Source of the DNA: an uncultured Enterovirga sp.
GTDB lineage: Bacteria > Pseudomonadota > Alphaproteobacteria > Rhizobiales > Beijerinckiaceae
NCBI RefSeq assembly: GCF_964242715.1
Contig: NZ_CAXTAZ010000011.1
Location: 24,593 to 88,592 of the forward strand
DNA length: 64,000 nt
Direction of reading: 5' to 3'
Shown piece by piece: positions 889-37,776 of the stretch (position 1 is its first letter; every line of letters begins with the position of its first letter). A model generated the notes under the pieces. That model worked only from the letters and a program-made list of their open reading frames with translations. It did not search any database and was not told where the DNA came from. A program made the position numbers and the translations under genes.

Positions 889-922
889 GGTCGGGGCGTC
901 CTGATCGATCGGTGTCGGGTGG

Positions 923-968: not shown

Positions 969-979
969 GAGCGGCGAGC

Positions 980-1267: not shown

Positions 1268-1292
1268 GGGATCTCCGAATTGCATCGACGCG

Positions 1293-1310: not shown

Positions 1311-1315
1311 AAGAC

Positions 1316-2065: not shown

Positions 2066-2126
2066 GCGCGGCCGGCTTGTGCCGGTCCGGGCAGGTGGTT
2101 ACGAGCCGAGCAAAGAAGGAGCCCTC

Positions 2127-2534: not shown

Positions 2535-2536
2535 TC

Positions 2537-3142: not shown

Positions 3143-3146
3143 CGGC

Positions 3147-15617: not shown

Positions 15618-15651
15618 TGCCTTCCATCCACGGCCTGCGCGGAAATCGGGG

Positions 15652-16074
15652 ATGATTGCCGTCACCCCTCGCATCCAGCTCCACGACGACGAAATCGGCG
15701 AGACCTTCGTGCGGGCCTCGGGGCCCGGAGGTCAGAACGTCAACAAGGTCTCGACCGCCGTCGAGCTGCGATTCGACGCGGCCGGCTCGCCGAACCTGCC
15801 CGACGGCGTGAAGCTGCGGCTGCGCGGGCTCGCCGGACGTCGCATGACGCAGGACGGCGTCATCGTCATCGACGCCCAGCGCTTCCGCACCCGCGAGCGC
15901 AACCGCGCCGACGCGCTCGAGCGGCTGGTCGAGCTGATCCGGGCCGCGACGATCGTGCCGAAGGTCCGTCGCCCGACCCGGCCGACGCTCGGCTCGAAGG
16001 AACGTCGGCTCGTCGGCAAGGAGAAGAGGGGGCGGGTAAAAGCGCTGCGGTCAGGCCGACCGGGGGACGATTAG
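15652..16074 (+). CDS. arfB: Alternative ribosome-rescue factor ArfB (class I release-factor-like peptidyl-tRNA hydrolase)
   Basis: 140 aa. GGQ motif (ASGPGGQNVNKVSTAV) and a basic C-terminal tail (KERRLVGKEKRGRVKALR). Confidence 0.9.
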   Translation: MIAVTPRIQLHDDEIGETFVRASGPGGQNVNKVSTAVELRFDAAGSPNLPDGVKLRLRGLAGRRMTQDGVIVIDAQRFRTRERNRADALERLVELIRAATIVPKVRRPTRPTLGSKERRLVGKEKRGRVKALRSGRPGDD

Positions 16075-16178
16075 CGCGTTCGTGCTGAAACGGGCGATCC
16101 CGTCCTGGTCCACGAACGGCGTGGACGAGAAGCTCGGTCGCCATCGACCGAGTCCTCGTCTTGGCTTCTTCAGTCGAA

Positions 16179-16516
16179 TCAGCAGCGGTCGTAGGTCGTC
16201 ACCTGGCCGCGCATCCGCCTGTCGCGAAGCATGAGGCGGTTCGGACCTGCCATCCGGATGGTACCCGAAGTCGTGTAACGTCCCGTGTCGTCGCTGCACT
16301 GCGCGACATAGGTGTAGGTCGCCCCGTCCTGGCGCGAGAGGCTGGTGAAGCGGCAAATGCCATTCGCAGCAAGCTCGTTCATCTGCGTCGCGCTCAATCT
16401 CATGCCGTACTCGCAGAGGTTGTCGCCCTCGCGCCAGCTGCCCTCGAACGGTAGGTCTGGCCTACCGCCGGACCGGACATCGCGAGCAGAACGAGCAGCA
16501 GGAGATCACGACGCAC
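16179..16516 (-). pseudogene. Small Cys-containing secreted protein, apparently split by a frameshift between the signal peptide and the mature part. Alternatively a leaderless 74-aa ORF 16179..16403.
   Basis: GTG 16516, after GGAAGGAAAGG, opens VRRDLLLLVLLAMSGPAVGQ..., which stops at 16400. The other frame is open from about 16507 and reads ...LPFEGSWREGDNLCEYGMRLSATQMNELAANGICRF...VAQCSDD...TYDRC, with no start codon before ATG 16403. Confidence 0.4.
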
Positions 16517-23244: not shown

Positions 23245-26200
23245 ATGGATGGTGATGCGACGAGCCTGGCCGAGCCGGGATCTATCGAAACCGCGCCCGA
23301 GCGCCCGGCCGGCGACCTTCGCAGCTTCCTCTTCGCCCGGGTCCCGGCCGAGGATCTGAAGCCCTACCCGGACGAGGTCCTCGACGCCGTCGCCGGGACC
23401 GCCGGAGAGCTCTTGGCGCGGCCGCGCCAGGACGGCGCGCCCGCGATGGCGCTCGCCGACGTCGCCGTCGAGCAGGCCGGCCGCTCCCGCGAGCTCACGC
23501 TCCTCGACGTCGTCAACGACGACATGCCCTTCCTGCTCGATTCGACCCTGGCCGAACTGGACTCACGCGGCCTCGAACCGGTTCTCGTCGCCCACCCGAT
23601 CCTGGCGGTCGAGCGCGGCGAGGATGGCGGGCTCCTGCGTCTCCACGGCGAGGCGACGACGGGCGCTCCCTCGGGCGGCCGGCGCGAAAGCCTGATCCAC
23701 ATCCATCTCGACCGGATCGACGACCCGGAGGCCCGGGCCGGCCTCGTCGAGGCGCTCGGCCGGACCTATGCCGATGTCGCGGCGGTCGCCCGCGACGCGG
23801 AGGCGATGCGGGTTCAACTCGCGGGTCTCGCCGAGGATTACCGCAACAATCCGCCGCCGCTCCCGGAAGACGAGCGCGAGGAGACCTGCGCCTTCCTGGA
23901 CTGGCTGAACGAGCGCCACTTCACCCTGGTCGGCATGCGGGCCTCCCGCATCCCGGAGGGCGTGGGCACGCCGGAACCGTTGGATGGATCCGGCCTCGGG
24001 CTCCTCGCCGATCCCGAGATCCAGGTCCTGCGGCGCGGCGGGCAGTCTGTCTCGATCACGCCCGAGATCCGGGCCTTCATGGAGCGTCCGGAGGCGCTCA
24101 TCATCACCAAGGCCAGCGTGCGGTCGCGGGTGCTGAAACGAGCCTATCTCGACTATGTCGGCGCGAAGCTGTTCTCGCCCTCCGGCCGGCTCTGGGGAGA
24201 ACTCGCCATCGTCGGGCTGTTCACCGGCTCGGCCTATGCGAGCCCGGCACCCGAGACGCCCTATCTGCGCCGCAAGGTCGCCCGGGTCCTCGCCCGCGCC
24301 GGGTTCGATCCGGCGAGCTTCGCCGGCCGCATGCTGGTCGAGACGCTGGAGGATATTCCGCGCGACGAGCTGTTCCAGATCGACGAGGACACGCTCTACG
24401 GCTTCGCCCTCGAGCTTCTCCGACTGCGCGAGCATCCCCGGGTCCGCGCGCTGGCCCGGGTCGACCGTCACGACCGCTACGTCTCCGTGATCGTCTATCT
24501 TCGCAAGGACCGCGACGACAGCGCGACCCGCGACCGGATCGGCAAGTATCTGGCGGAGGCCTACCAGGGCCGCGTCTCGGCGGTGTATCCGGCCTATCCG
24601 GAGGGCGTGCTCGCCCGCACCCATTTCATCATCGGACGCGACGGCGGCGCGACGCCCGAGGTCAGCCGCGAGACGCTGGAGGCCGAGATCGCGGCGATCG
24701 CCCGGACCTGGGCCGACCGGCTCGGCGATGCCCTCGCCGGGACCGTCGGCGGCCCCCGGGCCCGCGCGCTGGCGACCCGCTATGCCGGCGCCTTCGGGGC
24801 CGCCTATCGCGAGGCCTTCGACACTCCGGTCGCCCTCGCCGATATCGAGCGGCTCGAGCATCTGAGCGAGGCGCGGCCGCGCGCGGTTGATATCTACCGC
24901 CGCGAGGGCGAGCCCGCGAGCCGGGTCGACCTGAAGCTGTTTTCGCGGGGCGCGCCGTTGCCGCTCTCCGAACGCGTGCCGCTGCTCGAGCGGCTCGGCT
25001 TCCGGGTCGTGAACGAGCGGACCTACCGGATCGCCGGCGAGGGCGAGAACCGAGCCTGGCTGCACGACATGGCGCTCCAACGCGCGACCGGCCAGGATCT
25101 CGACATCGCCGCAGTCGAAGGTCGTCTCGAAGCGGCGCTCCTGGCTGTGTTCCGCGGCATCGCCGAATCGGACCGTTTCAACCAGCTCGTCGTCGAGGCC
25201 GGGCTCGGTTGGCGCGAGGCGGCCCTGTTCCGCGCCTACGGCCGCTACCTCCGGCAGATCGTGATCCCCTACAGCCAGGATTACCTCGCCGATGTCCTCG
25301 CCCGGCACGGCGAGATCGTGGCCGCGATCGTGGCCCTCTTCACGGCCCGGTTCGACCCGAAGGAGGCCGATGAGGCCCGGGCCGGCCGCGAAAGCGAGGC
25401 ACGGGAGCGGATCGCCGCCCTGCTCGCGGCCGTGACGAGCCTCGACGACGATCGCATCCTGCGCCGCTTCCTGAATCTCGTCGATGCGACGCTCCGGACG
25501 AACTTCTTCCAGCTCGGCCCGGACGGGCTGCCGCCGACCATCATCGCCTTCAAGTTCGAGGCCTCGGCCGTCGACGCGATGCCGCGGCCAAAGCCGCTTT
25601 ATGAGATCTTCATGAACTCGCCGCGGGTCGAGGCCTTGCATCTCCGCTTCGGCAAGGTCGCGCGCGGGGGCCTGCGCTGGACCGACCGGCCGGAGGACTT
25701 CCGCACCGAGGTGCTGGGCCTCGTGAAGGCGCAGCAGGTCAAGAACGCCGTGATCGTGCCGGTCGGCGCCAAGGGCGGGTTCTTCCCGAAGCTCCTGCCG
25801 CCGGCCTCGGACCGGGCCGCCTGGCTCGCCGAGGGGACGGAGGCCTACCGGCTCTTCGTCCGCACCCTCCTCGACCTCACCGACAATCTCGACGGCGCAA
25901 CCGTGGTCCACCCCGCCGATACGGTGCGGCGCGACGGCGACGACCCCTATCTCGTGGTCGCCGCCGACAAGGGTACGGCCACCTTCTCCGACATCGCGAA
26001 CGCGATCTCGCTCGAGCGCGGCCACTGGCTCGGCGACGCCTTCGCGTCCGGGGGCTCGAACGGCTACGACCACAAGCAGATGGCGATCACGGCCCGGGGC
26101 GCCTGGGAGGCCGTGAAGCGGCACTTCCGCGAGATCGACGTCGACATCCAGAAGGAGCCGGTCACGGTCGTGGGCGTGGGCGACATGTCGGGCGACGTGT

Positions 26201-28050
26201 TCGGCAACGGCATGCTGCTCTCGCAGAGCGTGAAGCTCGTGGCCGCCTTCGACCACCGCGACATCTTCATCGACCCGGACCCGGACGCGGATCTCGCCTT
26301 CCTGGAACGCGAGCGTCTCTTCGCCCTCCCGCGCTCGAGCTGGCAGGATTACGACAAGGGCCTGATCTCGGCCGGCGGCGGCGTGTTTCCGCGCTCCGCG
26401 AAGTCGATCCCGCTCTCGCCCGAGGCCCAGAAGGCCCTGGGCCTCGGGCAGAGCGAGATCGCTCCGTCCGAGCTGATGAGCGCGATCCTGCGCGCACCGG
26501 TCGGCCTCCTCTTCTTCGGCGGCATCGGCACCTATGTGCGGGCCTCAGACGAGACCGATGCGGCCGCCGGCGACCGCGCCAACGACCCGATCCGGATCGC
26601 CGGCCGCGAGATCCGGGCCCAGGTCGTGGGTGAGGGCGCCAATCTCGGCATGACCCAGCGCGGCCGCGTCGAGGCGGCCCGGGCGGGGATCCGGCTGAAC
26701 ACCGACGCGATCGACAATTCGGCCGGGGTGAACACCTCGGACATCGAGGTGAATATCAAGATCGCGCTCTCCGTCCCGGAGCGCGACGGCCGTCTCGCTC
26801 CGGACGACCGGAACGCGCTCTTGCGGGAGATGACGGACGAGGTCGCGAGCCTCGTCTTGCGCAACAACTATCTGCAGACGCTGGCGCTTTCCCTGTCGCA
26901 GCGGCGCGGGACGGCTGATCTCGGCTTCATGTCCCGCCTGATGCAGGTGCTGGAAGGGGAGGGCCGGCTCGACCGCCCGATCGAATTCCTGCCGGACGAG
27001 GCCGCGCTCGCGGCCCGGCGCCAGGCCGGCGAGGGACTGACAAGGCCGGAGCTCTCGGTGCTCCTCGCCTATGCCAAGCTCGCCTTGCACGACGAACTTC
27101 TCGCCTCATCCGTGCCGGATGACCCGTATCTGTCGCGCGAGCTCGACCGCTACTTTCCGGCCGCGCTTCGGGACCGCTTCCCGGATTCGGTTTCGGATCA
27201 TCGGCTGCGCCGGGAGATCATCTCCACGCAACTCGCGAACGCCATCGTGAACCGGGGCGGCCCCGCGATCGTCACCCGCCTCGTCGACGACACGGGCGCC
27301 GACGCCACCACCATCGCGGCCGCCTATGCGGCGACGCGCGATTCTTTCGGCCTCACCGACCTCTATTGGGGAATCGACGCGCTCGACGGCAAGGTCCCGG
27401 GCGAGCAGCAGCTCGCGCTCTATGCCGCGGTCCAGGAGCTGATGCTGTCCCGCATCGTCTGGTTCATCCGCAACGTCGATTTCAAGACGCGCTCGCTCGA
27501 CGACGTCGTCGGGCAATATGGGGCCGGCATCGCCGAGGTCTCGGCGGCGCTGGACTCCGCCCTTTCAGCGGCACGACGCGAGGCCTGGACGGCCCGGTCC
27601 GAATCCGTCGCCAGCGGCGGCGTGCCGGCCGGCCTTGCCCGCCGCCTCGCCGCACTCCCGGACCTCGCGGCCGCGCCGGACATCGTGCTGGTCGCTCGTC
27701 GTACCGGCCGAGCGATCACCGACGTCGCCGCGACGCATTTCGCGGTCGGCGCCCTGTTCCGACTGGGCGAGCTCGCCGAGGCTGCCTCCACGATCCCGGT
27801 CCTCGACCATTACGACCGCCTCGCCCGCGACCGCGCCATCGATTCCGTGGCCGAAGCTCACCGCCGCCTGACCTCGGAGGTGGTGACGGGTGATGCGACC
27901 GGCCCCGACGCCCTTTCGGCCTGGCAAGCTATCCGCGGCGGCGAAGCCGACCGTATCCGGGGCGCCGTGGAAGCCATCGCGGCCTCCGGGCTTACCGTAT
28001 CGAAGATGACGGTCGCGGCGAGCCTCGTGGGGGATCTGGCCAAGGCTTGA
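23245..28050 (+). CDS. gdhB: NAD-specific glutamate dehydrogenase, large (about 180 kDa) class
   Basis: 1601 aa. The central catalytic region reads [42 protein letters not shown]. Confidence 0.95.
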   Translation: [1601 protein letters not shown]

Positions 28051-28083
28051 GGCGAGCCTCGACGCACGCACGACGGCCAATTC

Positions 28084-29142
28084 TCATCCCGCCCGCCGCC
28101 CCCCCTGCTTCGGCCTGAGCCCCGCCTGCCGCTCGATCATCCAGCCCGGATACTCCTTCGGCAATGCGCTCGCGGCATCGAGGCGGGCGAGGTCGTCGTC
28201 TGTCAGCACGACGTCGACCGCCCCGAGATTGTCGGCAAGCTGGTCCGGCCGTTTCGCGCCGACGATGACGCTCGTGACGACGGGCTGGTGCAGCAGCCAG
28301 GCGAGCGCGACCTGGGCCACGCTGCAGCCCTTCTCGCCAGCGATCTCGCGGAGCACCACGACGGCGGCGCGGGCGCGAGGCCGCTCGACGGGCGGGAAGT
28401 CGAAGCTGGCGCGCCGGCCGGTGCCTTGCGTCGTGTCGTCGGCCTCGTCGAGATCGTATTTGCCGGACAGGAGGCCGCCGGCGAGCGGGCTCCAGACCAT
28501 CAGGCCGACCTTTTCGGACAGGAGCATCGGCACGATCTCGCGCTCGAGGTCGCGGCCGGCCAGGGTGTAGTAGCTCTGCAATATGCGGGGCGGGGCGAGG
28601 TTCTTCCGCTCCGCGATGCCGAGCGCCTTCGCGACCTGCCAGGCGGCCCAGTTCGAGACCCCGACATAGCGGACGTGGCCGTGCCGAACGAGCACGTCCA
28701 GCGCCTCCAGCATCTCTTCGACCGGGGTCGCGGCGTCGAAACCGTGCAGCTGGTAGAGGTCGACATGGTCGAGCCGGAGCCGCCGCAGGCTGTTCTTGCA
28801 GGCCTGGAGGATGTGGGCCCGGGAGGCGCCGACCCGGTTCGGGCCGGGAGCGGAGCCGACCCGCCCGAACCCTTTCGTGGCCACCACGACATCCTCGCGC
28901 GCGATGCCGAGATTCTTGATGGCCTGCCCGGTAATCTCCTCCGAGCGACCCTCGGAATAGACGTCCGCCGTGTCCAGGAAGTTGATGCCGCCGTCGAGCG
29001 CGACCTTGATCAGCGCGTCGGCCTCGCTTTGGCCGAGGTCGCCGATCTTGCTCCAGACCTCGCCGGTGCCACCGAAGGTCATGGTGCCGAGGCACAGCTC
29101 GGACACCAGAAGGCCGGTCTGGCCAAGATTGTTGTACCGCAT
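28084..29142 (-). CDS. Aldo/keto reductase (cytoplasmic, Tas/YajO-like)
   Basis: MRYNNLGQTGLLVSELCLGTMTFG..., FLDTADVYS, DLYQLHGFD. An alternative start lies at 29169. Confidence 0.9.
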   Translation of the reverse strand: MRYNNLGQTGLLVSELCLGTMTFGGTGEVWSKIGDLGQSEADALIKVALDGGINFLDTADVYSEGRSEEITGQAIKNLGIAREDVVVATKGFGRVGSAPGPNRVGASRAHILQACKNSLRRLRLDHVDLYQLHGFDAATPVEEMLEALDVLVRHGHVRYVGVSNWAAWQVAKALGIAERKNLAPPRILQSYYTLAGRDLEREIVPMLLSEKVGLMVWSPLAGGLLSGKYDLDEADDTTQGTGRRASFDFPPVERPRARAAVVVLREIAGEKGCSVAQVALAWLLHQPVVTSVIVGAKRPDQLADNLGAVDVVLTDDDLARLDAASALPKEYPGWMIERQAGLRPKQGGRRAG

Positions 29143-29351
29143 GGAAGAACTTTCGTAGGGCGCGGACATGGCTGCGACGTCGGGCGAAAGCCGGAAGGCA
29201 GCTTCGGTTCCGACGGGTGATACTGGCCTTGCGGGGCGGGCGTCATTCGAGGGCTGCATCGTCTCCGGACGCCGCCGAGGCCGATGCGTTCAGGATCGTT
29301 GCCCGGCCAGCCACCTCGTCGGAAGATATCGGACAGGTCGGAGAGAAAGCC

Positions 29352-29846: not shown

Positions 29847-32800
29847 ATGTCGCGTCTCTTCATCAGCCATTCCAGCCAGAACAACGCCGAAGCGGCGGCT
29901 TTGCTCAAATGGCTGAGGGAGCAGGGCTGGGACGACGTCTTCCTCGACATCACGCCCGATCGGGGCATCGCGGCCGGCGAGAAATGGGAACGGTCGCTGA
30001 ACGAGGCGGCCTCGCGCTGCGAAGCGGTGCTGTTCCTCGTCTCGCGACCCTGGATCGCCTCGCGCTGGTGCCGCAAGGAATATGATCTTGCCCGCCGGCT
30101 GAACAAGCGGCTCTTCGGCGCTCTGGTCGAGGTCATCCCGGTCGCGGAGCTGCCCTCCGAGGTGACCGAGACCTTCCAGATGGTCGACCTCGCCTCCGGC
30201 CAGGATCACCGCATGATCCGGACGGAGCTCCCTCGGACGCATGAGGAGATCCATGTCACCTTCTCGAACGAGGGCCTGGCCCGCCTGAAAGACGGCCTTG
30301 CCCGGGCCGGGCTCGATCCGCGCTTCTTCGCCTGGCCGCCGGACGCCGATCCGGGCCGGTCGCCCTATCGCGGTCTGAAGGCGCTGGAAGCCGAGGATGC
30401 CGGCATCTTCTTCGGCCGCGATGCGCCGATCGTCGAGGGCCTCGACATGCTGCGGGGCCTTGCGGAGGCCGCCGCGCCGCGCCTCTTCGTGATCATCGGG
30501 GCGTCTGGGGCCGGGAAGTCGTCCTTCCTCCGGGCGGGCCTCCTGCCGCGGCTCGCGCGCGACGACCGCACCTTCCTGGCCCTGCCGGTGATCCGGCCCG
30601 AGGGCGGGGCCGTGACCGGCGAGAGCGGCCTCCTGCCGGCGCTCGAAGCGGCGCTCGCGGCCCGCGGCATCCCGCAATCCCGCGCCGCGATCCGGACCGC
30701 CCTCGCCGGCGGGGCCGCGACGCTGAAGCCTTTGCTCGCCCGGCTCGCGGGCCGGGCCCAAACCGTGATGCCCGATGCCGAGGGCGCGGCGAAGCCGCCG
30801 ATGGTCACGATCTCGATCGACCAGGCCGAGGAGCTGTTCCGGCAGGATTGCGAGGGCGAGGAGTTGCTGGCGTTCGTGCGCGACCTCGTCACCGCCGACG
30901 ACCCGGCCGTGATCGTGCTGTTCACGATCCGGTCGGATTCCTACGACCATCTCGAGACCGCGAAGCCGCTGGAAGGCCTGCGCCAGCGTACCCTACCGCT
31001 CCTGCCGATGCCGCGCGGCGCCTACCAGACCGTGATCGAGGGCCCGGCGGCCCGCCTCGCGGGGACCAACCGGCCGCTCGCGATCGAGGCGCGGCTGACC
31101 CAGCGGCTGCTCGAGGATATCGAGCGGGGGGGCGGCTCGGACGCGCTGCCGCTCCTCGCCTTCACGCTCGGCCAGCTCTATCTCGATTTCGGCGGCGGCG
31201 GCGCGCTCCGGCTAGAGGATTACGAGGAATTCGGCGGCATCCGGGGCGCGATCGAGGCCGCGGTCCGGCGAGCCATGGTGGCAGCCGACCACGATGCCCG
31301 CCTGCCGCGCGATCCCGCCTCCCGCCTCCTCCTGCTCCGGCGCGGGCTGATTCCGTGGCTCGCCAATGTCGACCCGGAGACCGCGAGCCCGCGACGGCGA
31401 CGGGTGCCGCTCTCTGACATCCCGAGGGAGGCCGAACCGCTCATCCGTCTCCTGGTCGAGCAGCGGCTCCTCTCGATCGACCGGTCGGTCCTGCGGGACA
31501 CCGCGGGGGAGCGGGTCGAGACCACGATCGAGCCGGCGCACGAAGCGCTGCTGCGGCAATGGGGCTTGCTGCGGGGCTGGCTCGAGGAGGATTTCTCCGC
31601 CCTCACCATCCTGGAGGCCGTGAAGCGCGCCGCCCGTGACTGGGTTGCGAATGCGCGAGGCCAGGACTGGCTGAACCATACCGGCACCCGCCTTGCCGAG
31701 GCCGAGACGATCGCGGCCCGCCAGGACCTCGCCGGCGACCTCGGCGAGACGGCGCGAGACTACCTCGCGGGCTGCCGCACGCGCGACGACGCTGAGGAAG
31801 AGGCCCGCCTGCAGCGGATCGAGAACGAGCGCCGGCTGGCCGAAAGCCAGCTTCGGCTCGCCGAGGCTGACCGGCTGGCCGCGGAGGAAAAGGCTGCGGC
31901 AGCGCAGGCCCGGGCCGCGGCCTCGCGCCGTTTTGCCCGGCTCACGATCGCGGCCACGGTCGCGGTCGCGATCGGCCTCGCCGCCGCCGGCGGTTTCGCG
32001 GCGCTGAACCAGATGCAGAAGCAGCGCACCGCCGACGCGCTCGCCTCGGCCGAGGCTGGGCGCTGGGTGGCGAAATCCCAGGCCGAGCTCCGCGACGACG
32101 ATCCGGTCGAGGCGATGCGCAGCGCGCTCCGGGCCTACCGGCAGCTGCCGCGGGAGGATACGCGCTCGGCGCTCCTCGCCGCCCTCCTGGATATCCCGAA
32201 CCTCGCCGGCACGGTGAAGCTCCCCGATGGTCCCGCCCAGGCCCTCGCCTGGCTCGACGGCGGCACGCTCGGCTTCGCCTCGCAGGGCGGGGTCCTGCGC
32301 CGGATCCCGGTGCCGGGCCAGCCTGGCGACCGCACATTCGACGCGGCCGCCTGGCCCTCGCCGCCGGTCGAAGACCTGAAGGCGGGCCATGCCTTCGTGC
32401 GAGCCATCCGGCGGGTCGCGCCGGACAGGGTCGTGGCCGCGCTCTCGGACGGCTCGGTCCTGGCCATCGGGCGGTCGGACCCGAAGGCGGTCGAGCTCGT
32501 CCGCCCGGGCCCGAACACGGTTGTCGACGCGGCTGCGATCGGCCGGACCGGCGCCCTCGTCGCATCCGCCGCCAACGGCGAGGGCCTGAGCCTCGCGACC
32601 TGCGACGGGCAAAGCTGCACGACACGCCGCCTGAGCGAAGGTCCAGCCCTGTCGGTCGCCATCGACGAGAGCGAGACCAAGGTCGCGATGGGCGACGAGG
32701 GCGGCAACGTCTTCGTCTTCGAGCCGTCGGGTGCGCCGCATGGCCGGACGGTCGCGCTCGGCTCGCCCGTGACCTCGATCGGCTTCGGCGAGGGCGGCGC

Positions 32801-34124
32801 CTGGCTTGCCGCCGGCACGGCGTCGGGCGAGGCCGTGATCGTCGACCCGGTTCAGGGGAGCGTGGTCTTGCGGGCGGGCATGTCGACGCGACCGGTCGGC
32901 AGCGTGGCCGCTTCGCCGGTCGGGACGAAGGCGGCGTTCAGCTGCGGCGAGACGACGGCCTGCCTCTGGTGGCTGCGCCGGTCCGAGGCGTCGGGCGTCG
33001 CGTCGGCGGGATCGACGCGCCTGCCGGGCCAGCGCGGCGTCGTGGTCGCGACGGCCTGGTCGCCCGCGGGCGACCGGCTCGCGACGGCCTTCTCCGACGG
33101 CATCGTGCGGGTCTGGCGATCCGACGCGACGGGACAGGTCGGCGCGGCTTTCCGTCCCGAGCGGATGGTGAACCTGCTTCGCGTCCAGGCGAGCCCGGAC
33201 GGCAGCCTGGTCGCGGCCGGCGGCGGCGACGGCGCCGTCAGGATCTGGGACCGGCGCACCCATGCCCTGCGACGGGTGCTGCACAGGCCGGGCGGCGAGT
33301 TCGAGACGCGCTCGGTCGCCTGGGCGCCCGACGGCCGCATCGCGGCGGTCCATGACGACGGGGCCGTCGCGATCTGGCCGGCAAGCGGCGGCGACGGCGA
33401 GCCTGTCGTGAAACGCTGGGACGCGAATGCCAACCCGGGCCTGGCCTGGACCGGTGGCGGGCGCATGCTCGCCGTCGCGCTGGGAGATGGCCGCATCGCG
33501 CTGCACGACCCCGCGACCGGACAGGACGCGTTCCTGCCGGCGATCGGTCCCGGCACGGATCCCTGGGGCCTCCTCGCGAGCCCCGACGGCGCCTCGCTCG
33601 TCGCGACCTACGTCCGGGGCGAGATCCGCCGCTGGCAGCCCGCCGCGAAAACCCACACCGTTCTACGCTCCGCGGCCGACAGGCCGGCTGGCGAGCGCGG
33701 CGGTCCCGAAAGCCTGTCGGAGAGCCCGGACGGCCGCCGGCTCGCGGTCACGGCGGACGACGAGGACGTCCGGGTGCTCGACCGCAGCGCCGGCACTTGG
33801 ACGACGCTCCGGACGGAATCGCCGCAGACGAAGGCGGTCGCCTTCAGTCCCGACGGCGCTCGGCTCGCGGCGCTCGGCGTCGATGGGCGGCTCTATCTCT
33901 GGACGGTCGCGGCGACCGGGTTCGAGCGACACCTGTCGTTGCAGCCCTCCGCCGGTCCGACGCAGCTCGGTTCGCGGCGGCCGGCGAACGGGCTCAGCTG
34001 GGCCGGTCCGGACACGCTGGTCGTCGCGACATCGGGCGGGACGCTGCAGGCGATCGGGTTTGACGAGGCGGCCTGGGTGCGGCGGGCGGAGACGCTCGAT
34101 CTCGCCGTCGCGCCGGGTCCGTGA
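29847..34124 (+). CDS. TIR domain - STAND-type P-loop NTPase - coiled coil - hydrophobic helix - WD40-like beta-propeller protein (1425 aa)
   Basis: TIR: MSRLFISHSSQNN...VLFLVSRPWIASRWCRKEY (Glu78 at 30078-30080). NTPase: SPYRGLKALEAEDAGIFFGRD, Walker A GASGAGKSS (30498-30521), Walker B ISIDQAEELF (30810-), LPLLAFTLGQLY. Coiled coil at about aa 645-695. Hydrophobic helix LTIAATVAVAIGLAAAGGFAAL (31938-32006). C-terminal repeats have the form SPDG..LA....DG.VR.W. Confidence 0.9.
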   Translation: MSRLFISHSSQNNAEAAALLKWLREQGWDDVFLDITPDRGIAAGEKWERSLNEAASRCEAVLFLVSRPWIASRWCRKEYDLARRLNKRLFGALVEVIPVAELPSEVTETFQMVDLASGQDHRMIRTELPRTHEEIHVTFSNEGLARLKDGLARAGLDPRFFAWPPDADPGRSPYRGLKALEAEDAGIFFGRDAPIVEGLDMLRGLAEAAAPRLFVIIGASGAGKSSFLRAGLLPRLARDDRTFLALPVIRPEGGAVTGESGLLPALEAALAARGIPQSRAAIRTALAGGAATLKPLLARLAGRAQTVMPDAEGAAKPPMVTISIDQAEELFRQDCEGEELLAFVRDLVTADDPAVIVLFTIRSDSYDHLETAKPLEGLRQRTLPLLPMPRGAYQTVIEGPAARLAGTNRPLAIEARLTQRLLEDIERGGGSDALPLLAFTLGQLYLDFGGGGALRLEDYEEFGGIRGAIEAAVRRAMVAADHDARLPRDPASRLLLLRRGLIPWLANVDPETASPRRRRVPLSDIPREAEPLIRLLVEQRLLSIDRSVLRDTAGERVETTIEPAHEALLRQWGLLRGWLEEDFSALTILEAVKRAARDWVANARGQDWLNHTGTRLAEAETIAARQDLAGDLGETARDYLAGCRTRDDAEEEARLQRIENERRLAESQLRLAEADRLAAEEKAAAAQARAAASRRFARLTIAATVAVAIGLAAAGGFAALNQMQKQRTADALASAEAGRWVAKSQAELRDDDPVEAMRSALRAYRQLPREDTRSALLAALLDIPNLAGTVKLPDGPAQALAWLDGGTLGFASQGGVLRRIPVPGQPGDRTFDAAAWPSPPVEDLKAGHAFVRAIRRVAPDRVVAALSDGSVLAIGRSDPKAVELVRPGPNTVVDAAAIGRTGALVASAANGEGLSLATCDGQSCTTRRLSEGPALSVAIDESETKVAMGDEGGNVFVFEPSGAPHGRTVALGSPVTSIGFGEGGAWLAAGTASGEAVIVDPVQGSVVLRAGMSTRPVGSVAASPVGTKAAFSCGETTACLWWLRRSEASGVASAGSTRLPGQRGVVVATAWSPAGDRLATAFSDGIVRVWRSDATGQVGAAFRPERMVNLLRVQASPDGSLVAAGGGDGAVRIWDRRTHALRRVLHRPGGEFETRSVAWAPDGRIAAVHDDGAVAIWPASGGDGEPVVKRWDANANPGLAWTGGGRMLAVALGDGRIALHDPATGQDAFLPAIGPGTDPWGLLASPDGASLVATYVRGEIRRWQPAAKTHTVLRSAADRPAGERGGPESLSESPDGRRLAVTADDEDVRVLDRSAGTWTTLRTESPQTKAVAFSPDGARLAALGVDGRLYLWTVAATGFERHLSLQPSAGPTQLGSRRPANGLSWAGPDTLVVATSGGTLQAIGFDEAAWVRRAETLDLAVAPGP

Positions 34125-34181: not shown

Positions 34182-36014
34182 ATGGCGGACCGGCATCTCG
34201 GATCAGCGGCAACCCTTCTGGCCGGCGTCTTCTTCGCCCTAGCGCTGTGCGGCTCGGCCGGGGCGGAGGAGGACGACGCCTCCCCGACGGCCCGCGTAGT
34301 CGTCGCCCTTCCGGCCGAAGCGGGAGCGTGGCGCAGCCGCAGCCAGCCGGTCTACGATCCGAAGGCCCAGGCGCTCGTCCGCAAGCTCTACACGGTTTGG
34401 GACCCCACGCCGTCGCGGGGGCTCGACTTCACCTGGCTGCCGGATCGTCCGGCGGATGGCGAGGCGGAACGCATCACCGGCCAGGGGCGGCTCGTCTGGC
34501 GGGCCGCCGGGAAGCCCTCCTACGATCCGGCCTCCTTCGTGGCCGAGTATCGCGGCCGCATGCAGGCCGGTCGTCCGGACGGCGTCGGGAGCTATCGCGA
34601 TCGGCAGGGCCTGTCCTACGAGGGTGGCTGGGTCGGCGGGCGCCCGGCCGGCACCGGCGCGATGAAGCTCGGCAACGGCGCCGAATATGCCGGTCGGTTC
34701 GAGCATGGTGGCGCGGAAGGCCTGGGCCGGTTCTACGACGTCGACGGCGAGATCTTCGAGGGCCTGTTCCGGCGCGGGCTGCGGGAGGGACGGGGCCGCA
34801 CGATCCTGCCGGGCGGCGGCGCCTACCAGTCGCGATGGGTGGCCGGCGAGGAGGTCGCGAATTCCCGCAAGCTCCGGGTCGCGCAGCTCGGCCCCGGAGT
34901 CGCTGCGAATGACGACATCCGGCTCGGCATCACGGTCGATCGCGTCGATGATCCCGACCTCCTGCAATACACGACCAGCAATGCCGAGAGCGGACTCCTG
35001 ATCCGGCCGAGCAAGGGGCGGCTGATGGATGCCTGGAAGGGCAATGGCGAGATCCAGTTGACCGAGCGCGAGGAGGGGATCACCGGGCGCGGCAGCTACG
35101 GCATCTTCGCCTTCGCGGCCGGCGACATGCCGCCTCTGTCGCTCGTCTTCGAGGTGCAGAACCGGGCGGCTGCCCCGGTCCGGGTGCGCGGGGCCTATCT
35201 CGACGTGGATGCGAGCAATACCGATCTTCAGCCCGCGATCCAGATGAGCGGCGGCTCCTCGGGCGAATGCAGCGCGCGGGCCCGTTCCGATTTCTCCCCG
35301 CGCTACGAACTCGAGAATTTCGGCTGGGGTGCGGCGGAAGGCGCCAAGCTCCGCTTCAACTTCGTGGCGCCACGCTCGAACGCCGCCTCGCCGTCTGCGA
35401 TCACGAAAGAGGTCGGCAATGTCACGACCGTCAGCAAGGTCGATTTTGAGGCCGAGCTCCGGGCCGCCGGGGTCAAGACCGATATCCTGAAGCAGCGGGC
35501 CCAGAGCGGCGGCATCGCCTGCAAGTCCAAGGGCAATCCCGGCGCCTGCCTCGCCGAGATCGTGGCGACCGGCTATTTCGGCACCCTCGGGCGTCTCGTT
35601 CGGCTCGATGAGCGGGACATCGTCCTCCACGCGGGCGGCACGCTCGATTACGGGTGGCGGACGCAAGGTGGCGAGCAGAAGACCCGGTCATCTCCCTTCA
35701 ACGCGCGGCTCCTGCTGGCCCGCACCCCGGTCGAGGCGGAATGCGGCGAGGGGGCCGAGAAGGAGGCCGTCGGCAAGAAGCCGCTCGAGTTCCGGCTCGA
35801 CCAGACGCGCTACCGGCTGCCGGTCGCCTTCGAGCGCACCGTCCGGGCAGGCGGCAGCGCGCGCTACACCGTCACCTTGCAGGCCCCGAAATCCTCCGAA
35901 CACAAATTCAAGGTCGTGCTGCAGACGGCCGATGGCCGGCAGATCGCCTCGCGGCCGATCGCGCTCACCTATTTCCGGCCGAACCGCCTGACGGACCAGT
36001 ATCTGAACCAGTGA
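34182..36014 (+). CDS. Secreted MORN-repeat protein with a large uncharacterised C-terminal domain (610 aa)
   Basis: GGAGGGAG RBS. Signal peptide MADRHLGSAATLLAGVFFALALCGSAGA. MORN-like units: YRGRMQAGRPDGVGSY, YEGGWVGGRPAGTGAM, YAGRFEHGGAEGLGRF, FEGLFRRGLREGRGRT. About 370 aa at the C-terminus carry no motif I recognise and include four Cys. Confidence 0.85.
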   Translation: MADRHLGSAATLLAGVFFALALCGSAGAEEDDASPTARVVVALPAEAGAWRSRSQPVYDPKAQALVRKLYTVWDPTPSRGLDFTWLPDRPADGEAERITGQGRLVWRAAGKPSYDPASFVAEYRGRMQAGRPDGVGSYRDRQGLSYEGGWVGGRPAGTGAMKLGNGAEYAGRFEHGGAEGLGRFYDVDGEIFEGLFRRGLREGRGRTILPGGGAYQSRWVAGEEVANSRKLRVAQLGPGVAANDDIRLGITVDRVDDPDLLQYTTSNAESGLLIRPSKGRLMDAWKGNGEIQLTEREEGITGRGSYGIFAFAAGDMPPLSLVFEVQNRAAAPVRVRGAYLDVDASNTDLQPAIQMSGGSSGECSARARSDFSPRYELENFGWGAAEGAKLRFNFVAPRSNAASPSAITKEVGNVTTVSKVDFEAELRAAGVKTDILKQRAQSGGIACKSKGNPGACLAEIVATGYFGTLGRLVRLDERDIVLHAGGTLDYGWRTQGGEQKTRSSPFNARLLLARTPVEAECGEGAEKEAVGKKPLEFRLDQTRYRLPVAFERTVRAGGSARYTVTLQAPKSSEHKFKVVLQTADGRQIASRPIALTYFRPNRLTDQYLNQ

Positions 36015-37776
36015 CGTCACCCGCCTCGCGCCCACGCAGCAGCGCGTTGCCGAGCTCGAACAGGTTCGGCAGCGGGATCAGCCGCACCGCGAAGGTGCCC
36101 TGGCGGAAGCGGCGCAGCTCGAGAAGGGCGCCTGTGCCCCGGGGCGAGGTCTGGTCGAAGAGGAAGTTTCCGAGGGACGGAAGCAGCGCGTATTCGCCGC
36201 CCTGCGGCGCCTCGATCCGGGCGGCGGCACGGTGGCTATGCGCGCCGATGATCGCGCCGACCCCGCAGCGATGCAGATTGCGGGCGGCCTCGTATTCGGC
36301 CGGGCCGATATCGGTCGCGTATTCGACGCCCCAATGCACGAAGGCGACGAGGGGCGGGCGCGCGGCCGCTCGGCAGAGCGTGTCGAGATCGCCCTCCCGC
36401 ACCACCGGGAAGCCGGAGCGGTCGTTCCGGCCGACGAAGTTGAGCGGGATGATCCGGACAGGCCCGAGATCGGCGACCCGTCCGTGCGGCATCGGCATGA
36501 TCCCGGTTCGCTCCAAATGGGCGATCGTCTCGCGGTAGCCGTCACGACCGAGATCGAAGCTGTGATTGTTGGCGAGGCCGGCGGCCTTGACGTTCATGGC
36601 CTTCAGGATGGGCAAAGCGAGCCCGGCATGGATCGCGTGGAGATGGTCGCCGATGCCTTCCGGCGGTTCGGTCAGCAGCACGCCTTCGAGGTTGAGGACG
36701 AGCGGCGCCCCGCCGGTCAGGGTCCTGACCCGCGCCGCGATCGCGTCGGCGATGGCGGGCGTGGCGAGCGCCTTGGTTAGCCAGCGCCCCGGAAAGGCGT
36801 CGCCACCGAAGACGAGGACCTCCTGGTCCGGATAGGCGTAAGGGAAGGCCTCGGTCTCGGTCGCATAGACCGAGACGAGGTAGCTCGTCGTGCGCGAGGC
36901 ATGCGGCACGTATTCGACCGAGTTCCGGCTCGCGATCACGGTCCCTCGGGACCCGCGCGACGCCTGTAAGCTCATCTGGACATACTGCGCGCCCCGCGAA
37001 TCCATGTGGTCCGACGAGACGAGTCGCTCGATCGCGGCCGGATCCTCGGCCGCGATCACGTTCAAGGTCTCCTGGTCGCGGGCGAGGCTCGCGACCACCG
37101 GGAGGTAGTGGGAATAGTCGGTCGATTGCACGACGAGCGTGCCCGGTCCGGCAAGCTTCTCCAGGAGCGCCGTCGCCCGGTCCCACTCGGCCCGGCCCGC
37201 CCGGAGCGAGATCGCGATCGGGACGATCTTCGCGTCGGGAAAGAAGTGCTTCGCGAAGGGCAGCAGGGCCGCGATGCCGTGCTCGCGGTCGAAGAGATCC
37301 GAAACCTCGAACAGCTCGCTATCCGCGACGAGCGTTCCAACCGCATCGCGATCGGTCGCGAGCCTCCCGAACACGGTGTCGAAGTCGTGCGCGCTCGTCG
37401 CAAGGGGCTTGCGGCTTCGGTTGAAATGGTCTGGCGACAGGATGACGATCCGGTCGTAGCGGTTGCCCTGGGCGGCCCAGAAGCCCCGCGCGATCAGGTC
37501 CGCCGCAAGCAGGTGGTGCGGGACGGTGATGCCGGTGACGGTCGGCGGCCGCGCCGGCGCAGGTTGCCGCTCCGCCGCGATCGCGGCCAGGAAGGGCTGC
37601 GGGTCGGTGTACAGGGAGGGGAAGGAGGCGGTTTCGGCCGGCTGGGCCTGTCTGTCAGCCGAGTCGTGTCCGGGAGCTCCTTCTCCCGCGAGAGGAGAAG
37701 GAGCCGCGCAGAGGCCGAAGCTGGTCGTCGTGAGGGCGAGGACCAGCCCGAACCGGAGCGCCGCCCAGCGCCTCAA
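35965..37776 (-). CDS. Exported fusion protein: Memo/AmmeMemoRadiSam-B-like domain plus CapA (PGA_cap) metallophosphatase-like domain
   Basis: TTG 37776 overlaps the livF stop (TTGA). Signal-like MRRWAALRFGLVLALTTTSFGLCAAP. Memo-like: ITVPHHLLAADLI...IVILSPDHF...STDYSHY. CapA-like: VLNLEGVL, LANNHSFDLGRDGYRETIAHL, VHWGVEY, IIGAHSHR, LPSLGNFLFDQ. Confidence 0.8.
   Translation of the reverse strand: MRRWAALRFGLVLALTTTSFGLCAAPSPLAGEGAPGHDSADRQAQPAETASFPSLYTDPQPFLAAIAAERQPAPARPPTVTGITVPHHLLAADLIARGFWAAQGNRYDRIVILSPDHFNRSRKPLATSAHDFDTVFGRLATDRDAVGTLVADSELFEVSDLFDREHGIAALLPFAKHFFPDAKIVPIAISLRAGRAEWDRATALLEKLAGPGTLVVQSTDYSHYLPVVASLARDQETLNVIAAEDPAAIERLVSSDHMDSRGAQYVQMSLQASRGSRGTVIASRNSVEYVPHASRTTSYLVSVYATETEAFPYAYPDQEVLVFGGDAFPGRWLTKALATPAIADAIAARVRTLTGGAPLVLNLEGVLLTEPPEGIGDHLHAIHAGLALPILKAMNVKAAGLANNHSFDLGRDGYRETIAHLERTGIMPMPHGRVADLGPVRIIPLNFVGRNDRSGFPVVREGDLDTLCRAAARPPLVAFVHWGVEYATDIGPAEYEAARNLHRCGVGAIIGAHSHRAAARIEAPQGGEYALLPSLGNFLFDQTSPRGTGALLELRRFRQGTFAVRLIPLPNLFELGNALLRGREAGDVTGSDTGPSGGSAGNR
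37676..37704. repeat. REP-like 11-bp perfect inverted repeat embedded in coding sequence
   Basis: GCTCCTTCTCC-CGCGAGA-GGAGAAGGAGC. On the minus strand it encodes APSPLAGEGAPG, just after the signal segment of the Memo/CapA protein. Confidence 0.5.

Follow-up and report, generated by a model that had tools for sequence, protein, structure and literature searches.

A conserved hydrophobic helix between NTPase and sensor suggests a membrane-spanning, receptor-like layout for a TIR-nSTAND1 protein

Introduction

To our knowledge, all prokaryotic STAND/NLR-like immune sensors that have been characterised mechanistically detect their triggers intracellularly. The most recent systematic survey likewise frames these proteins as detecting triggers inside the cell (PMC13581612). 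A gene in a 64,000-nucleotide stretch of DNA from an uncultured Enterovirga sp. (the whole stretch is called the window below) raises the question of whether a STAND sensor could instead lie outside the cytoplasm. The gene encodes a protein with an N-terminal TIR domain, a STAND NTPase and a C-terminal propeller region, and a first-pass annotation had proposed that one hydrophobic helix splits it into a cytoplasmic half and a possibly periplasmic sensor. Is this segment a transmembrane (TM) helix, and what would that imply for the compartment in which the protein senses?

Results

Domain layout of the TIR-nSTAND1-WD40 protein

The main features of the gene are:
29847..34124, plus strand: gene for the TIR_2-nSTAND1-TM-tandem WD40 protein, 1425 aa (open reading frame, translation and Pfam; TM predicted)
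29859..30200, plus strand: TIR_2 domain, aa 5-118 (Pfam PF13676, 59.3 bits against a cut-off of 28)
30363..31661, plus strand: nSTAND1 NTPase module, aa 173-605 (Pfam PF20703, E 9.3e-67)
31746..31934, plus strand: long charged helix, aa 634-696 (AF2 model helix H35-97), predicted to be cytoplasmic
32007..32189, plus strand: juxtamembrane helix (to aa 749) and two-helix cap (aa 753-781) (AF2 H103-150, H154-167 and H171-182), predicted to be periplasmic
32202..34058, plus strand: about 56 β-strands, aa 786-1404 (AF2 mean pLDDT 86.8), predicted periplasmic sensor

A match of 100% identity to the 1425-aa protein (P0001) carries the NCBI name 'TIR domain-containing protein [uncultured Enterovirga sp.]'. 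The translation starts with the TIR domain and has no N-terminal signal peptide. Within the TIR_2 domain, the motif WCRKE (aa 74-78, window 30066-30080) has nearly invariant W, C and E residues in a 39-sequence alignment (A1), and Glu78 pairs with the catalytic-Glu position (WCLDE) of the plant RPP1 TIR (5teb), in an alignment that is weak (E 0.71). Judged by sequence, the domain is predicted to be a cytoplasmic NADase effector.

The match to nSTAND1 reaches 226.7 bits against a cut-off of 27.1 and covers profile positions 1-377 of 379. Both its Walker A motif (GASGAGKSS, aa 218-226, window 30498-30524) and its Walker B-like motif (SIDQAEELF, aa 323-331, window 30813-30839) are nearly invariant in A1. 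The first-pass annotation had compared the protein with Avs/bNACHT-type sensors; the NTPase is of another type: the region is nSTAND1, with AAA_16 a weak second, and NACHT (PF05729) is absent among the best 25 of 37 Pfam families. The NTPase is followed by a charged helix of 63 residues; a charged stretch (DDAEEE...) begins in it at aa 647, and the basic cluster RRFAR (aa 694-698, window 31926-31940) forms its end, both as first described. On inspection of the sequence its heptad pattern is irregular, and the helix may form a coiled coil or stand as a single α-helix stalk.

Beyond the hydrophobic segment, the AF2 model (in which model residue i is aa 599+i) shows a juxtamembrane helix and cap at pLDDT 91-96. 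The juxtamembrane helix is continuous with the putative TM helix, and the cap leads into the first propeller; juxtamembrane helix and cap dock on the propellers. The propeller had initially been placed from aa ~760; its β-strands start only at about aa 786, and residues 721-781 form the helical cap. We read the strand region of the model as two tandem, approximately seven-bladed WD40-type propellers. Pfam WD40/β-propeller matches fall at aa 939-1360 (PF00400, 73.6 bits against a cut-off of 27), and the top Foldseek matches are 2ymu, Aip1 (1nr0), which is itself a tandem seven-bladed propeller, and Apaf-1 (3shf), with E-values down to 2e-31 (2ymu).

A single hydrophobic segment

31941..32006, plus strand: predicted transmembrane helix, L699-L720, LTIAATVAVAIGLAAAGGFAAL (hydropathy, AF2 helix and family-wide conservation)

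Window positions 31938-32006 on the plus strand translate to RLTIAATVAVAIGLAAAGGFAAL, in frame with the open reading frame 29847..34124, and the 22-residue uncharged run reported there is indeed present as L699-L720, directly after the charged helix and RRFAR. The best Kyte-Doolittle (KD) 19-mer of the protein lies in this segment, at 2.02; the runner-up scores 1.44 and contains charged residues. A TopPred-style trapezoid scan with the GES scale and a cut-off of 1.0 gave 1.89 for the segment and 1.02 for the runner-up, which is a β-blade in the AF2 model. Neither the KD nor the GES scan found a second candidate TM helix, in agreement with the claim that there is only one. The segment is not amphipathic, with a hydrophobic moment of 0.36 against a mean hydropathy of 2.05. 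It is flanked by four K/R residues on its N side and two on its C side. AF2 models it as a helix at pLDDT ~50, packing against nothing and running straight into the confident juxtamembrane helix.

Two properties of this copy count against a TM helix. The segment is Ala/Gly-rich, and its best 19-mer has a position-independent Hessa sum of about +1.0 kcal/mol. The segment is also weak evidence when this sequence is taken alone, because the protein is rich in Ala, Leu and Val and 28% of residue shuffles reach a KD19 of at least 2.02; a run of at least 22 residues free of D/E/K/R/Q/N/H/P appeared in 3% of shuffles. At a shuffle rate of 28%, we dropped single-sequence hydropathy as an argument for significance.

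The segment is conserved across a large family

Homologs were scanned for one 19-mer of KD >= 1.6 downstream of nSTAND1, within aa 600-800. Such a segment was present in 114 of the 120 best homologs, so the conservation in orthologs on which the proposal had been made to depend was found. A set chosen without bias, with the NTPase domain alone as query and representatives at 50% identity, had it in 112 of 141, its median distance from the end of the NTPase domain being 40 residues. All nine STANDs found inside the conserved gene cassette described below have it as well. The uncharged runs are 19-28 residues long, and their sequences are unrelated. Since position and physical character are kept across hundreds of homologs whose segment sequences are unrelated, the segment is more than a product of chance. 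Many homologs have segments far more hydrophobic than this copy, with KD up to 2.9 and Hessa sums down to -3. According to Pfam lists and the scan, the segment precedes WD40, TPR, FGE-sulfatase and CHAT sensors and short tails alike.

The family comprises 1,483 clusters of 50% identity at E <= 1e-30, and about 80% of those sampled have the helix. The feature is not confined to a single protein: most members of a very large TIR-nSTAND1 clade have it. The segment is missing from about 15-20% of close relatives, which means that the NTPase does not need it to work, and this counts against the TM reading.

The flanks of the segment are strongly asymmetric. The first-pass annotation had invoked the positive-inside rule for an N-in orientation, and the homologs agree: among the best homologs the 15-residue flanks hold a mean of 5.07 K+R on the N side vs. 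2.49 on the C side. The N side leads in 108 of 114 of these, and the unbiased set shows the same in 102 of 112. Across 195 members, position -1 is K or R in 95%, D/E make up at most 4% at each of the last seven residues of the N flank, W/Y account for 15-31% at each of the last four segment positions, and Q/N occupy +1 in 62%. Such asymmetry is typical of a bitopic protein of the N-in type. In the family, Gly is enriched at positions 5 to 8 residues ahead of the helix's outer end. GxxxG motifs are depleted in the helices (16 observed vs. 37 expected), a point against the TM reading, and the motif was rejected as evidence for TM-driven oligomerisation.

Two cysteine pairs in the propellers

32601..32618, plus strand: Cys pair 1, C919/C924 (CDGQSC), a four-residue hairpin turn between the cysteines; candidate disulfide
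32943..32963, plus strand: Cys pair 2, C1033/C1039 (CGETTAC), in the equivalent c-d hairpin of another blade; candidate disulfide

The two closely spaced pairs that had been pointed out as possible disulfides (TCDGQSC, aa 918-924, and SCGETTAC, aa 1032-1039) occur in the protein and are conserved. They are invariant in 16 orthologs and in four more distant cassette STANDs (L012 and L015-L017) at ~30% identity, in which the loop of pair 1 differs in length (4 to 12 residues) while the cysteines stay. Two orthologs have gained four extra Cys, in two pairs. In the AF2 model the two cysteines of each pair lie on the paired strands of a single β-hairpin: C919 closes strand E314-320 and C924 opens E325-331. 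We infer that the pairs behave like disulfides. A four-Cys metal site built from both pairs is unlikely, as they are separated by ~110 residues (2-3 blades) and the loop within pair 1 is so variable in length.

The disulfide argument is limited to the cassette subgroup, because the C-terminal part shows no Cys parity bias across the broad family (62 even vs. 52 odd) and Cys frequency is ~0.5% on both sides of the segment. Cys parity was accordingly dropped as a family-wide disulfide signature.

A recurrent cassette with two putative exported proteins

34182..36014, plus strand: gene for a putative exported MORN-repeat protein, 610 aa (translation, Pfam MORN), starting 58 bp after the STAND stop codon
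35965..37776, minus strand: gene for a fusion of Memo (AmmeMemoRadiSam-B-like) and PGA_cap (Pfam, NCBIfam TIGR04336), convergent with the MORN gene

The MORN protein has a predicted signal peptide, MADRHLGSAATLLAGVFFALALCGSAGA, with cleavage before EEDD, and an N-terminus resembling a signal peptide was found in 54 of 71 homologs, some of which also carry PAN/Apple domains. In fold searches only the MORN array was recognised (Foldseek match MORN1); its N-terminal β domain and C-terminal β-sandwich domains had no informative PDB match. The terminator scan found no plus-strand terminator between the STAND and MORN genes. Co-transcription of the two is compatible with this arrangement, though the evidence is weak. 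The 3' end of the Memo-PGA_cap gene overlaps the MORN gene by 50 bp, and the N-terminus of the encoded protein is Sec- or Tat-signal-like, RRWAALRFGLVLALTTTSFGLCAA. In the 12 copies examined, all N-termini are hydrophobic, and several have a twin-arginine TRRxxL motif. The Memo-PGA_cap gene adjoins the MORN gene in every case examined. This linkage of the STAND gene to two proteins with predicted export signals adds a line of support that the first-pass annotation did not have.

The same three-gene order (STAND, then MORN protein, then Memo-PGA_cap facing them) stands between unrelated flanks in the window and in seven other loci (L003, L004, L005, L010, L015, L016 and L017). L004 is from Rhizobium johnstonii, where the cassette lies among IS elements, and L015 is from Methylovirgula. 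L011 holds a cut-off copy, and L012 and L014 a rearranged version with a DUF4062-like N-terminus. The cassette is recurrent and previously undescribed; a literature search for the combination of MORN, Memo and PGA_cap returned nothing relevant. Two findings count the other way. The MORN protein has no signal peptide in two cassettes (L004 and L005), and in three loci (L008, L009 and L013) no STAND adjoins the MORN/Memo pair. The context gives no support for or against an anti-phage role, because the other neighbours in the window are an NAD-glutamate dehydrogenase (GDH) and an aldo-keto reductase, and the stand-alone STAND relatives in L006 and L007 lie amid housekeeping genes.

Discussion

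A probable bitopic STAND with a periplasmic sensor

The protein is probably a bitopic STAND, N-in and C-out, with a periplasmic tandem-propeller sensor. A single segment of membrane-spanning length as judged by hydropathy scales, no cleavable N-terminal signal and a positive-inside asymmetry match a bitopic type II protein, and the N-terminus would be inside because the N-terminal part carries the ATPase and an NAD+-using TIR. The segment would act as a signal-anchor and single-pass TM helix, with the TIR NADase, the nSTAND1 ATPase and a charged stalk helix of ~60 residues on the cytoplasmic side, and the helical cap and two tandem WD40-type propellers (~700 aa) on the periplasmic side, where two hairpin-stapling disulfides would form.

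Such a layout suggests a possible mode of activation. The periplasmic propellers would bind an envelope ligand. This could be a foreign protein, or it could involve the exported MORN-repeat and Memo-PGA_cap proteins encoded alongside, either through an alteration of these or through a complex with them. Binding would cluster receptors in the plane of the membrane, and the rigid cap-TM-stalk helix could relay this proximity into ATP-dependent oligomerisation of nSTAND1. The TIR domains would then be brought together, and NAD+ cleavage or production of a signal nucleotide might lead to growth arrest or death. One point counts against the TM reading: canonical STANDs are regulated by direct contact between sensor and NOD, which a membrane between the two rules out. 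We know of no demonstrated case of transmembrane activation of a STAND.

Three other explanations were weighed. The helix might be a mere membrane tether, or a monotopic or interfacial anchor, with cytoplasmic propellers sensing intracellular ligands near the membrane, for example injecting phage. Every characterised Avs and bNACHT sensor does work in the cytoplasm, relatives without a TM segment bear the same sensor types, and both the missing Cys parity bias of the broad family and the signal-less MORN partners of L004 and L005 fit such a tether. However, an uncharged run of 19-25 residues with so low a moment for its hydropathy fits a spanning helix and not one lying in the plane of the membrane, the same is true of positive charge at one side and an aromatic belt with Q/N at the other, and a single spanning helix necessarily separates the two halves of the protein to opposite sides. 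A tether also gives no account of the Cys pairs at the hairpins or of the gene's link to exported proteins, and we consider it unlikely.

We give slightly less credence to the possibility that the helix spans the membrane mainly as an effector. Upon oligomerisation the gathered helices would then breach the inner membrane or collapse its potential, with or without TIR activity, and the propellers would be secondary. Defence systems often use short transmembrane effector modules, some members have only ~115-aa tails after the helix (P0022, P0023 and P0051), and the Gly enrichment before its outer end could be read in the same way. Against this, the helix sits between NTPase and sensor while the N-terminal effector end is taken by a TIR whose catalytic motif appears intact, helix-packing GxxxG motifs are rarer than expected, and the large conserved sensor domains behind the helix suggest that its job is to place them. 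An effector role is compatible with the bitopic topology and does not exclude it.

Least probable of all, and in our judgement very unlikely, is that the segment never enters the membrane and is a buried or self-associating hinge or oligomerisation helix of a soluble protein, its hydrophobicity partly an Ala/Gly/Val-rich by-product of a ~70% G+C genome: the shuffle rate, the slightly positive Hessa sum of this copy and the lack of a confident AF2 placement speak for it, but composition explains neither exactly one segment at the same place in >200 homologs, many of them much more hydrophobic, nor the boundary pattern of K/R at -1 and W/Y at the other end, and a core helix should be conserved, amphipathic and packed in the AF2 model, none of which the segment shows.

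If the bitopic topology with a periplasmic sensor is correct, bacteria would possess NLR-type receptors that sample the envelope compartment, where phage tail tips and ejected proteins, T6SS and contact-dependent toxins, bacteriocins, lytic enzymes and periplasmic predators arrive before they reach the cytoplasm. STAND activation would then be independent of a sensor contacting and inhibiting the NOD, pointing to a model of proximity and clustering across the membrane, and NLR and TLR signalling logic would be joined in one molecule. Where the helix is overlooked, by annotation pipelines or by sensor classifications built on structure, many 'intracellular' sensors may then be assigned to the wrong compartment. 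The cassette, with its two predicted exported proteins, supplies concrete candidate ligands or partners that are genetically testable.

A bolder extension is possible, though we regard it as doubtful. The STAND and the exported MORN and Memo-PGA_cap proteins might make up an undescribed system of three genes for envelope surveillance that travels between genomes. Its periplasmic propellers would guard the secreted partners or act jointly with them, and would signal invasion of, or damage to, the envelope to the cytoplasmic TIR NADase. More broadly, most of the >1,000 TIR-nSTAND1 clusters might be extracytoplasmic pattern-recognition receptors, a bacterial counterpart of Toll-like receptors on an NLR chassis.

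Comparison with known systems

Among the closest described systems is the nSTAND1 clade (PF20703), delineated by Kaur, Burroughs, Iyer and Aravind (eLife 2021, PMC8195603). The present protein shares with it a full-length NTPase match (E 9e-67) and a three-part plan of N-terminal effector (TIR), NTPase and C-terminal repeat-superstructure or FGE sensors. The available part of that paper mentions no lone TM helix separating NTPase from sensor; here most members of the TIR-nSTAND1 subclade have one.

With Avs and bNACHT proteins (Gao 2022; Kibby 2023; PMC13581612) the protein has a common logic, in that one polypeptide holds effector, STAND and sensor and is presumed to be activated by oligomerisation, and WD40 and FGE sensors have also been recorded for defence STANDs (PMC13581612). 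Those proteins belong to another NTPase clade, however, and their characterised members sense phage proteins in the cytoplasm, whereas the present gene lies outside any defence island. Neither PADLOC nor NCBIfam gave a named system for the protein. The PADLOC search matched no Avs model, returning only weak TIR-like ThsB and SAVED-TIR matches and one P-loop fragment. For Thoeris there were only weak, partial ThsB-like and ThcB4 matches, far below cut-offs, and the neighbours are GDH, an aldo-keto reductase, the MORN protein and Memo-PGA_cap. Apaf-1, seen above among the Foldseek matches, also follows a STAND ATPase with two tandem WD40 propellers as sensor, but it is wholly cytosolic, has a CARD effector and belongs to the AP-ATPase clade.

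Bitopic bacterial Ser/Thr kinases whose WD40, TPR, FGE or β-propeller sensors lie outside the cytoplasm, Mycobacterium tuberculosis PknD among them, offer a parallel in topology. In Planctomycetota, Ser/Thr kinases have a single TM helix followed by WD40, TPR or FGE domains for which DeepTMHMM predicts a periplasmic location (PMC11032199). They share with the present family a cytoplasmic N-terminal catalytic domain, one TM helix and the same trio of C-terminal sensors, and provide a precedent for this sensor set outside the membrane, although their output is a kinase and not TIR plus STAND.

The idea of a periplasmic-sensing STAND has already been voiced in passing in the literature. Thiohalocapsa PB-PSB1 has DGR-diversified STAND targets (NACHT or nSTAND1), some with TIR, that have TM segments (Dore et al., PNAS 2024, PMC10907252). 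In the second target of DGR 3, both the NACHT and the C-type-lectin domains are predicted to be periplasmic and were explicitly proposed to sense periplasmic threats, whereas the nSTAND1 targets of DGR 6 are predicted to be cytoplasmic (PMC10907252). These targets differ from the present protein in having retroelement-diversified CLec/FGE sensors, no WD40 and no MORN/Memo-PGA_cap cassette.

Animal Toll-like receptors resemble the predicted topology in outline, with sensor repeats on the outside, a TIR domain on the inside, one TM helix between them and ligand-induced association. The likeness is one of analogy and not of membership: the polarity is opposite, with the TIR N-terminal here, the sensor is WD40 and not LRR, a STAND ATPase is inserted, and only the TIR is homologous. 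In that analogical sense, the protein may be regarded as an NLR that is receptor-like in its logic, with the layout of a Toll-like receptor into which a STAND switch has been inserted.

Domain organization of the STAND protein

The hydrophobic segment that gave rise to this analysis is encoded within a single long ORF, shown here with its neighbours:

23245-29259, upstream: a 1601-aa NAD-specific glutamate dehydrogenase (Bac_GDH), and an aldo-keto reductase on the opposite strand
29847..34124 (+): STAND protein, 1425 aa
31938-32006 (+): hydrophobic segment, in frame with the STAND ORF, encoding RLTIAATVAVAIGLAAAGGFAAL
34182-37776: MORN-repeat protein and convergent Memo-PGA_cap genes
35965-36014: 50 bp overlap of the 3' ends of these two genes

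The STAND protein has a 100% identical database counterpart, 'TIR domain-containing protein [uncultured Enterovirga sp.]', which is also listed as an nSTAND1 domain-containing NTPase. Enterovirga is placed in the Methylobacteriaceae (Alphaproteobacteria), which are diderm bacteria, so 'periplasm' is the correct word here. The P-loop and Walker B motifs are intact, and the WCxxE motif of the TIR domain is conserved. By Pfam, PADLOC and NCBIfam profiles the protein is not an Avs, bNACHT or Thoeris component; it belongs to the nSTAND1 group (Kaur et al., 2021, PMC8195603). An AF2 model of aa 600-1425, built with 39 aligned homologs, had a mean pLDDT of 86.8.

Domains and structural elements of the STAND protein, from Pfam matches and the AF2 model
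aa 5-118: TIR_2 (Pfam)
aa 173-605: nSTAND1 (Pfam, E 9e-67)
aa 634-696: single long helix (AF2)
aa 690-709: low-confidence break, pLDDT ~50 (AF2)
aa 702-749: helix holding the hydrophobic segment and running unbroken into a confident juxtamembrane helix (AF2)
up to aa 781: two-helix cap (AF2)
aa 786-1404: ~56 strands (AF2)
aa 939-1360: many WD40/beta-propeller matches (Pfam)

Using Foldseek, the strand region was matched to tandem seven-bladed WD40 propellers (2ymu; Aip1, 1nr0; Apaf-1, 3shf). The hydrophobic segment has no packing partner in the model, which speaks against a buried core helix.

A hydrophobic helix shared by TIR-nSTAND1 proteins

The first-pass annotation had proposed that one membrane-spanning helix separates a cytoplasmic TIR-NTPase half from a possibly periplasmic propeller. 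The sequence details behind this proposal were all recovered: the uncharged run is L699-L720, the basic cluster RRFAR occupies aa 694-698, and the charged coiled-coil stretch is an acidic/basic helix whose first residue is D647. Hydropathy and GES scans of the whole protein found no second candidate helix. The segment has a Kyte-Doolittle score (KD19) of 2.02, against 1.44 for the runner-up, and a TopPred-style GES score of 1.89. Because Ala, Leu and Val abound in the protein, 28% of residue shuffles match or exceed this KD19, and in 3% a run of the same length appears without charged or strongly polar residues. For the best 19-mer the position-independent Hessa sum, at ~ +1 kcal/mol, is borderline. 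Taken by itself, the segment is thus only weakly above chance. With single-sequence scores this weak, the case stands on comparative data.

A hydrophobic 19-mer (KD ≥ 1.6) lies in the stretch scanned after nSTAND1 (aa 600-800) in 114 of the 120 best full-length homologs; its uncharged run measures 19-28 residues, and the segment sequences are mutually unrelated. To guard against circularity, the NTPase domain alone (aa 173-640) was searched against 1.84 billion 50%-identity representatives, returning 1,483 clusters at E ≤ 1e-30. Among the matches listed, 141 representatives had at least 100 residues beyond the NTPase domain; 112 of these carry the segment, several more are borderline, and the segment starts at a median of 40 residues past the domain end. 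The sensors behind it are WD40, TPR, FGE-sulfatase or CHAT domains, and also short tails. The predicted helix is part of the TIR-nSTAND1 chassis, not of any single sensor.

The asymmetry expected from the positive-inside rule also held in the family, with more K+R on the N-terminal than on the C-terminal side in 108/114 and 102/112 members. In 195 members, the residue directly ahead of the segment is K/R in 95%, the eight positions before it hold K/R in 31-52% each, and acidic residues are nearly absent from the last seven N-flank positions. At the other end, W/Y account for 15-31% of residues per position over the last four segment positions, and the first residue after the segment is Q/N in 62%. 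Positive charge on the predicted inside together with an aromatic belt on the predicted outside is the textbook mark of a single-span, N-in helix. The N-terminus of the STAND protein is a TIR domain, not a signal peptide. What is shown is a single helix with transmembrane-like properties. A minority of ~15-20%, for example the homologs P0014 and P0027 and several representatives, lacks the helix; cytosolic and membrane-spanning versions therefore coexist.

In one TIR-nSTAND1-FGE-sulfatase homolog (P0017, 1464 aa), the sole strong hydrophobic segment spans aa 1161-1179, with another P-loop at ~aa 722-742; the protein may have a tandem or fused organization unlike the rest of the family. A word-indexed search with aa 690-850 (window 31914-32396) gave zero matches, self included, probably an effect of candidate selection or low complexity, and says nothing against the existence of relatives.

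Paired cysteines in the propellers

The two Cys pairs reported for the propeller region are C919/C924 and C1033/C1039. Neither pair varies among 16 orthologs, the most distant at 41% identity, and both are kept at ~30% identity in the STAND proteins of four loci from other genomes (L012, L015-L017), where the first loop varies from 4 to 12 residues. Two of the 16 orthologs have four extra cysteines, again as two pairs. In the AF2 model each pair flanks a c-d hairpin turn, with one Cys ending a strand and the other opening the following strand, at the place of S-x-D-G-T in canonical WD40 repeats. Given the paired gain, the tolerated variation in loop length and the cross-hairpin geometry, the pairs are predicted to be disulfide staples and would fit an oxidising compartment. 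A metal site was also considered and fits these same features poorly. The broader family has no bias towards even cysteine numbers (62 even, 52 odd), and the disulfide argument is therefore confined to this subgroup.

A conserved cassette with two exported partners

The gene for a MORN-repeat protein (610 aa, clear signal peptide) lies 58 bp downstream of the STAND gene and is followed by a convergent gene for a Memo (AmmeMemoRadiSam-B-like) and PGA_cap fusion with a Sec/Tat-like N-terminus. This three-gene block recurs with unrelated flanks in the window and at seven of the loci below.

Loci of other genomes with the cassette, a cut-off copy or a rearranged form
L003, L010: three-gene block
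L004: three-gene block, Rhizobium johnstonii, STAND 41% identical, with IS110/IS66 elements and a CHAT-TPR gene around it
L005: three-gene block among Mutator-type transposases
L015: three-gene block, Methylovirgula; 3' overlap of 44 bp (9766-9809)
L016: three-gene block with two MORN copies; no 3' overlap
L017: three-gene block; the MORN protein carries PAN domains
L011: copy cut by the contig end, in which the WD40 end of a STAND immediately precedes the MORN gene
L012: rearranged; a DUF4062-like (TIR-like) N-terminus replaces TIR_2 in the STAND protein
L014: rearranged; the nSTAND1 part alone is visible before the locus end

The L012 STAND protein keeps the TM helix, the cap, degenerate propellers and the two Cys pairs. 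In the loci examined, the MORN and Memo-PGA_cap genes were never apart. The pair occurs without an adjacent STAND gene at L008, L009 and L013, and in E. rhinocerotis the STAND gene is elsewhere in the genome (L001, L009). TIR-nSTAND1-TM members with TPR (L006) or canonical WD40 (L007) sensors stand alone amid housekeeping genes, with no cassette. No defence island was found at the STAND locus, where the upstream neighbours (window 23245-29259) are ordinary metabolic genes.

The N-terminus is hydrophobic in each of the 12 Memo-PGA_cap copies, and several contain a TRRxxL twin-arginine motif. Signal-peptide-like N-termini are present in at least 54 of 71 MORN homologs, and further ones are borderline or have miscalled starts. 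The exceptions are the MORN proteins of L004 (10311-12098) and L005 (10381-12219), which lack a signal peptide and have no upstream room for one; these may act in another compartment or use another export route. Some MORN homologs (P0320, P0321, P0322, P0326 and P0333) carry PAN/Apple domains (PF00024, PF14295, PF08276), binding modules that are typically rich in disulfides and found outside the cell. Across 46 aligned MORN homologs C447 is invariant and C456 nearly so; for C363 and C521, invariance is confined to a four-sequence alignment. The repeated linkage to two exported proteins lends independent support to an envelope-facing function in this subgroup.

Several neighbourhoods had further features. 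Upstream of the L004 cassette (473-5025) are a CHAT-TPR protein, a GH108/PG_binding_3 lysozyme-like protein, a stand-alone TIR_2 protein and IS110/IS66 transposases, a setting that resembles a mobile island with many conflict genes. In L016 (1-2107), another nSTAND1 protein, this one with TPR sensors, is encoded on the opposite strand, ~1.7 kb from the cassette STAND gene. L012 and L014 each have two MORN and two Memo-PGA_cap copies, and in L012 (10746-16256) a patatin-like phospholipase gene (15015-16256) starts 7 bp past the STAND stop codon.

Membrane topology and a possible mechanism

A membrane-spanning protein with its propeller outside agrees with all computational tests run and is supported as a predicted topology. 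The helix would serve as a signal-anchor, with the TIR, NTPase and stalk on the cytoplasmic side, while the cap and propellers would leave via Sec and become oxidised. Binding of a periplasmic ligand, in which the MORN and Memo-PGA_cap proteins may take part, would cluster receptors; the unbroken cap-TM-stalk helix would pass this proximity to the NTPase, which would oligomerise and bring TIR domains together into an active NADase. With a membrane between sensor and NOD, Apaf-1/MalT-style autoinhibition by sensor-NOD contact would be impossible, and we infer induced proximity as the simplest alternative.

The segment could instead be a tether that does not span the membrane, leaving the sensor cytoplasmic, which we consider unlikely in view of the segment's length and non-amphipathic character, its asymmetric flanks, the paired cysteines and the exported neighbours. 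That a spanning helix acts chiefly as a membrane-damaging effector is compatible with the receptor topology and a little less probable still: the helix lies behind the NTPase, the TIR domain is intact and GxxxG motifs are depleted. A soluble hydrophobic hinge, or an artefact of composition, is very improbable on the same five grounds as the tether.

Relation to known systems

The idea of a periplasmic STAND is not wholly new. Dore et al. (PMC10907252) predicted that one DGR-target STAND with a TM segment is periplasmic, and membrane-proximal conflict systems were described by Kaur et al. (2020). In the literature searched, including these studies and a 2026 STAND survey (PMC13581612), we found no description of the single-pass TIR-nSTAND1-TM-sensor architecture, of its dominance in the clade, of the hairpin Cys pairs, or of the MORN/Memo-PGA_cap combination. 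A membrane-spanning STAND would be surprising, as it would run counter to the 'intracellular sensor' paradigm; the claim is open to direct test by standard topology reporters, and the new conserved cassette points to candidate ligands. In its predicted architecture the protein is similar to those bitopic Ser/Thr kinases for which a periplasmic location of the WD40, TPR or FGE sensors has been predicted (PMC11032199). It would share its way of working with anti-phage STANDs and the placement of its sensor with a Toll-like receptor.
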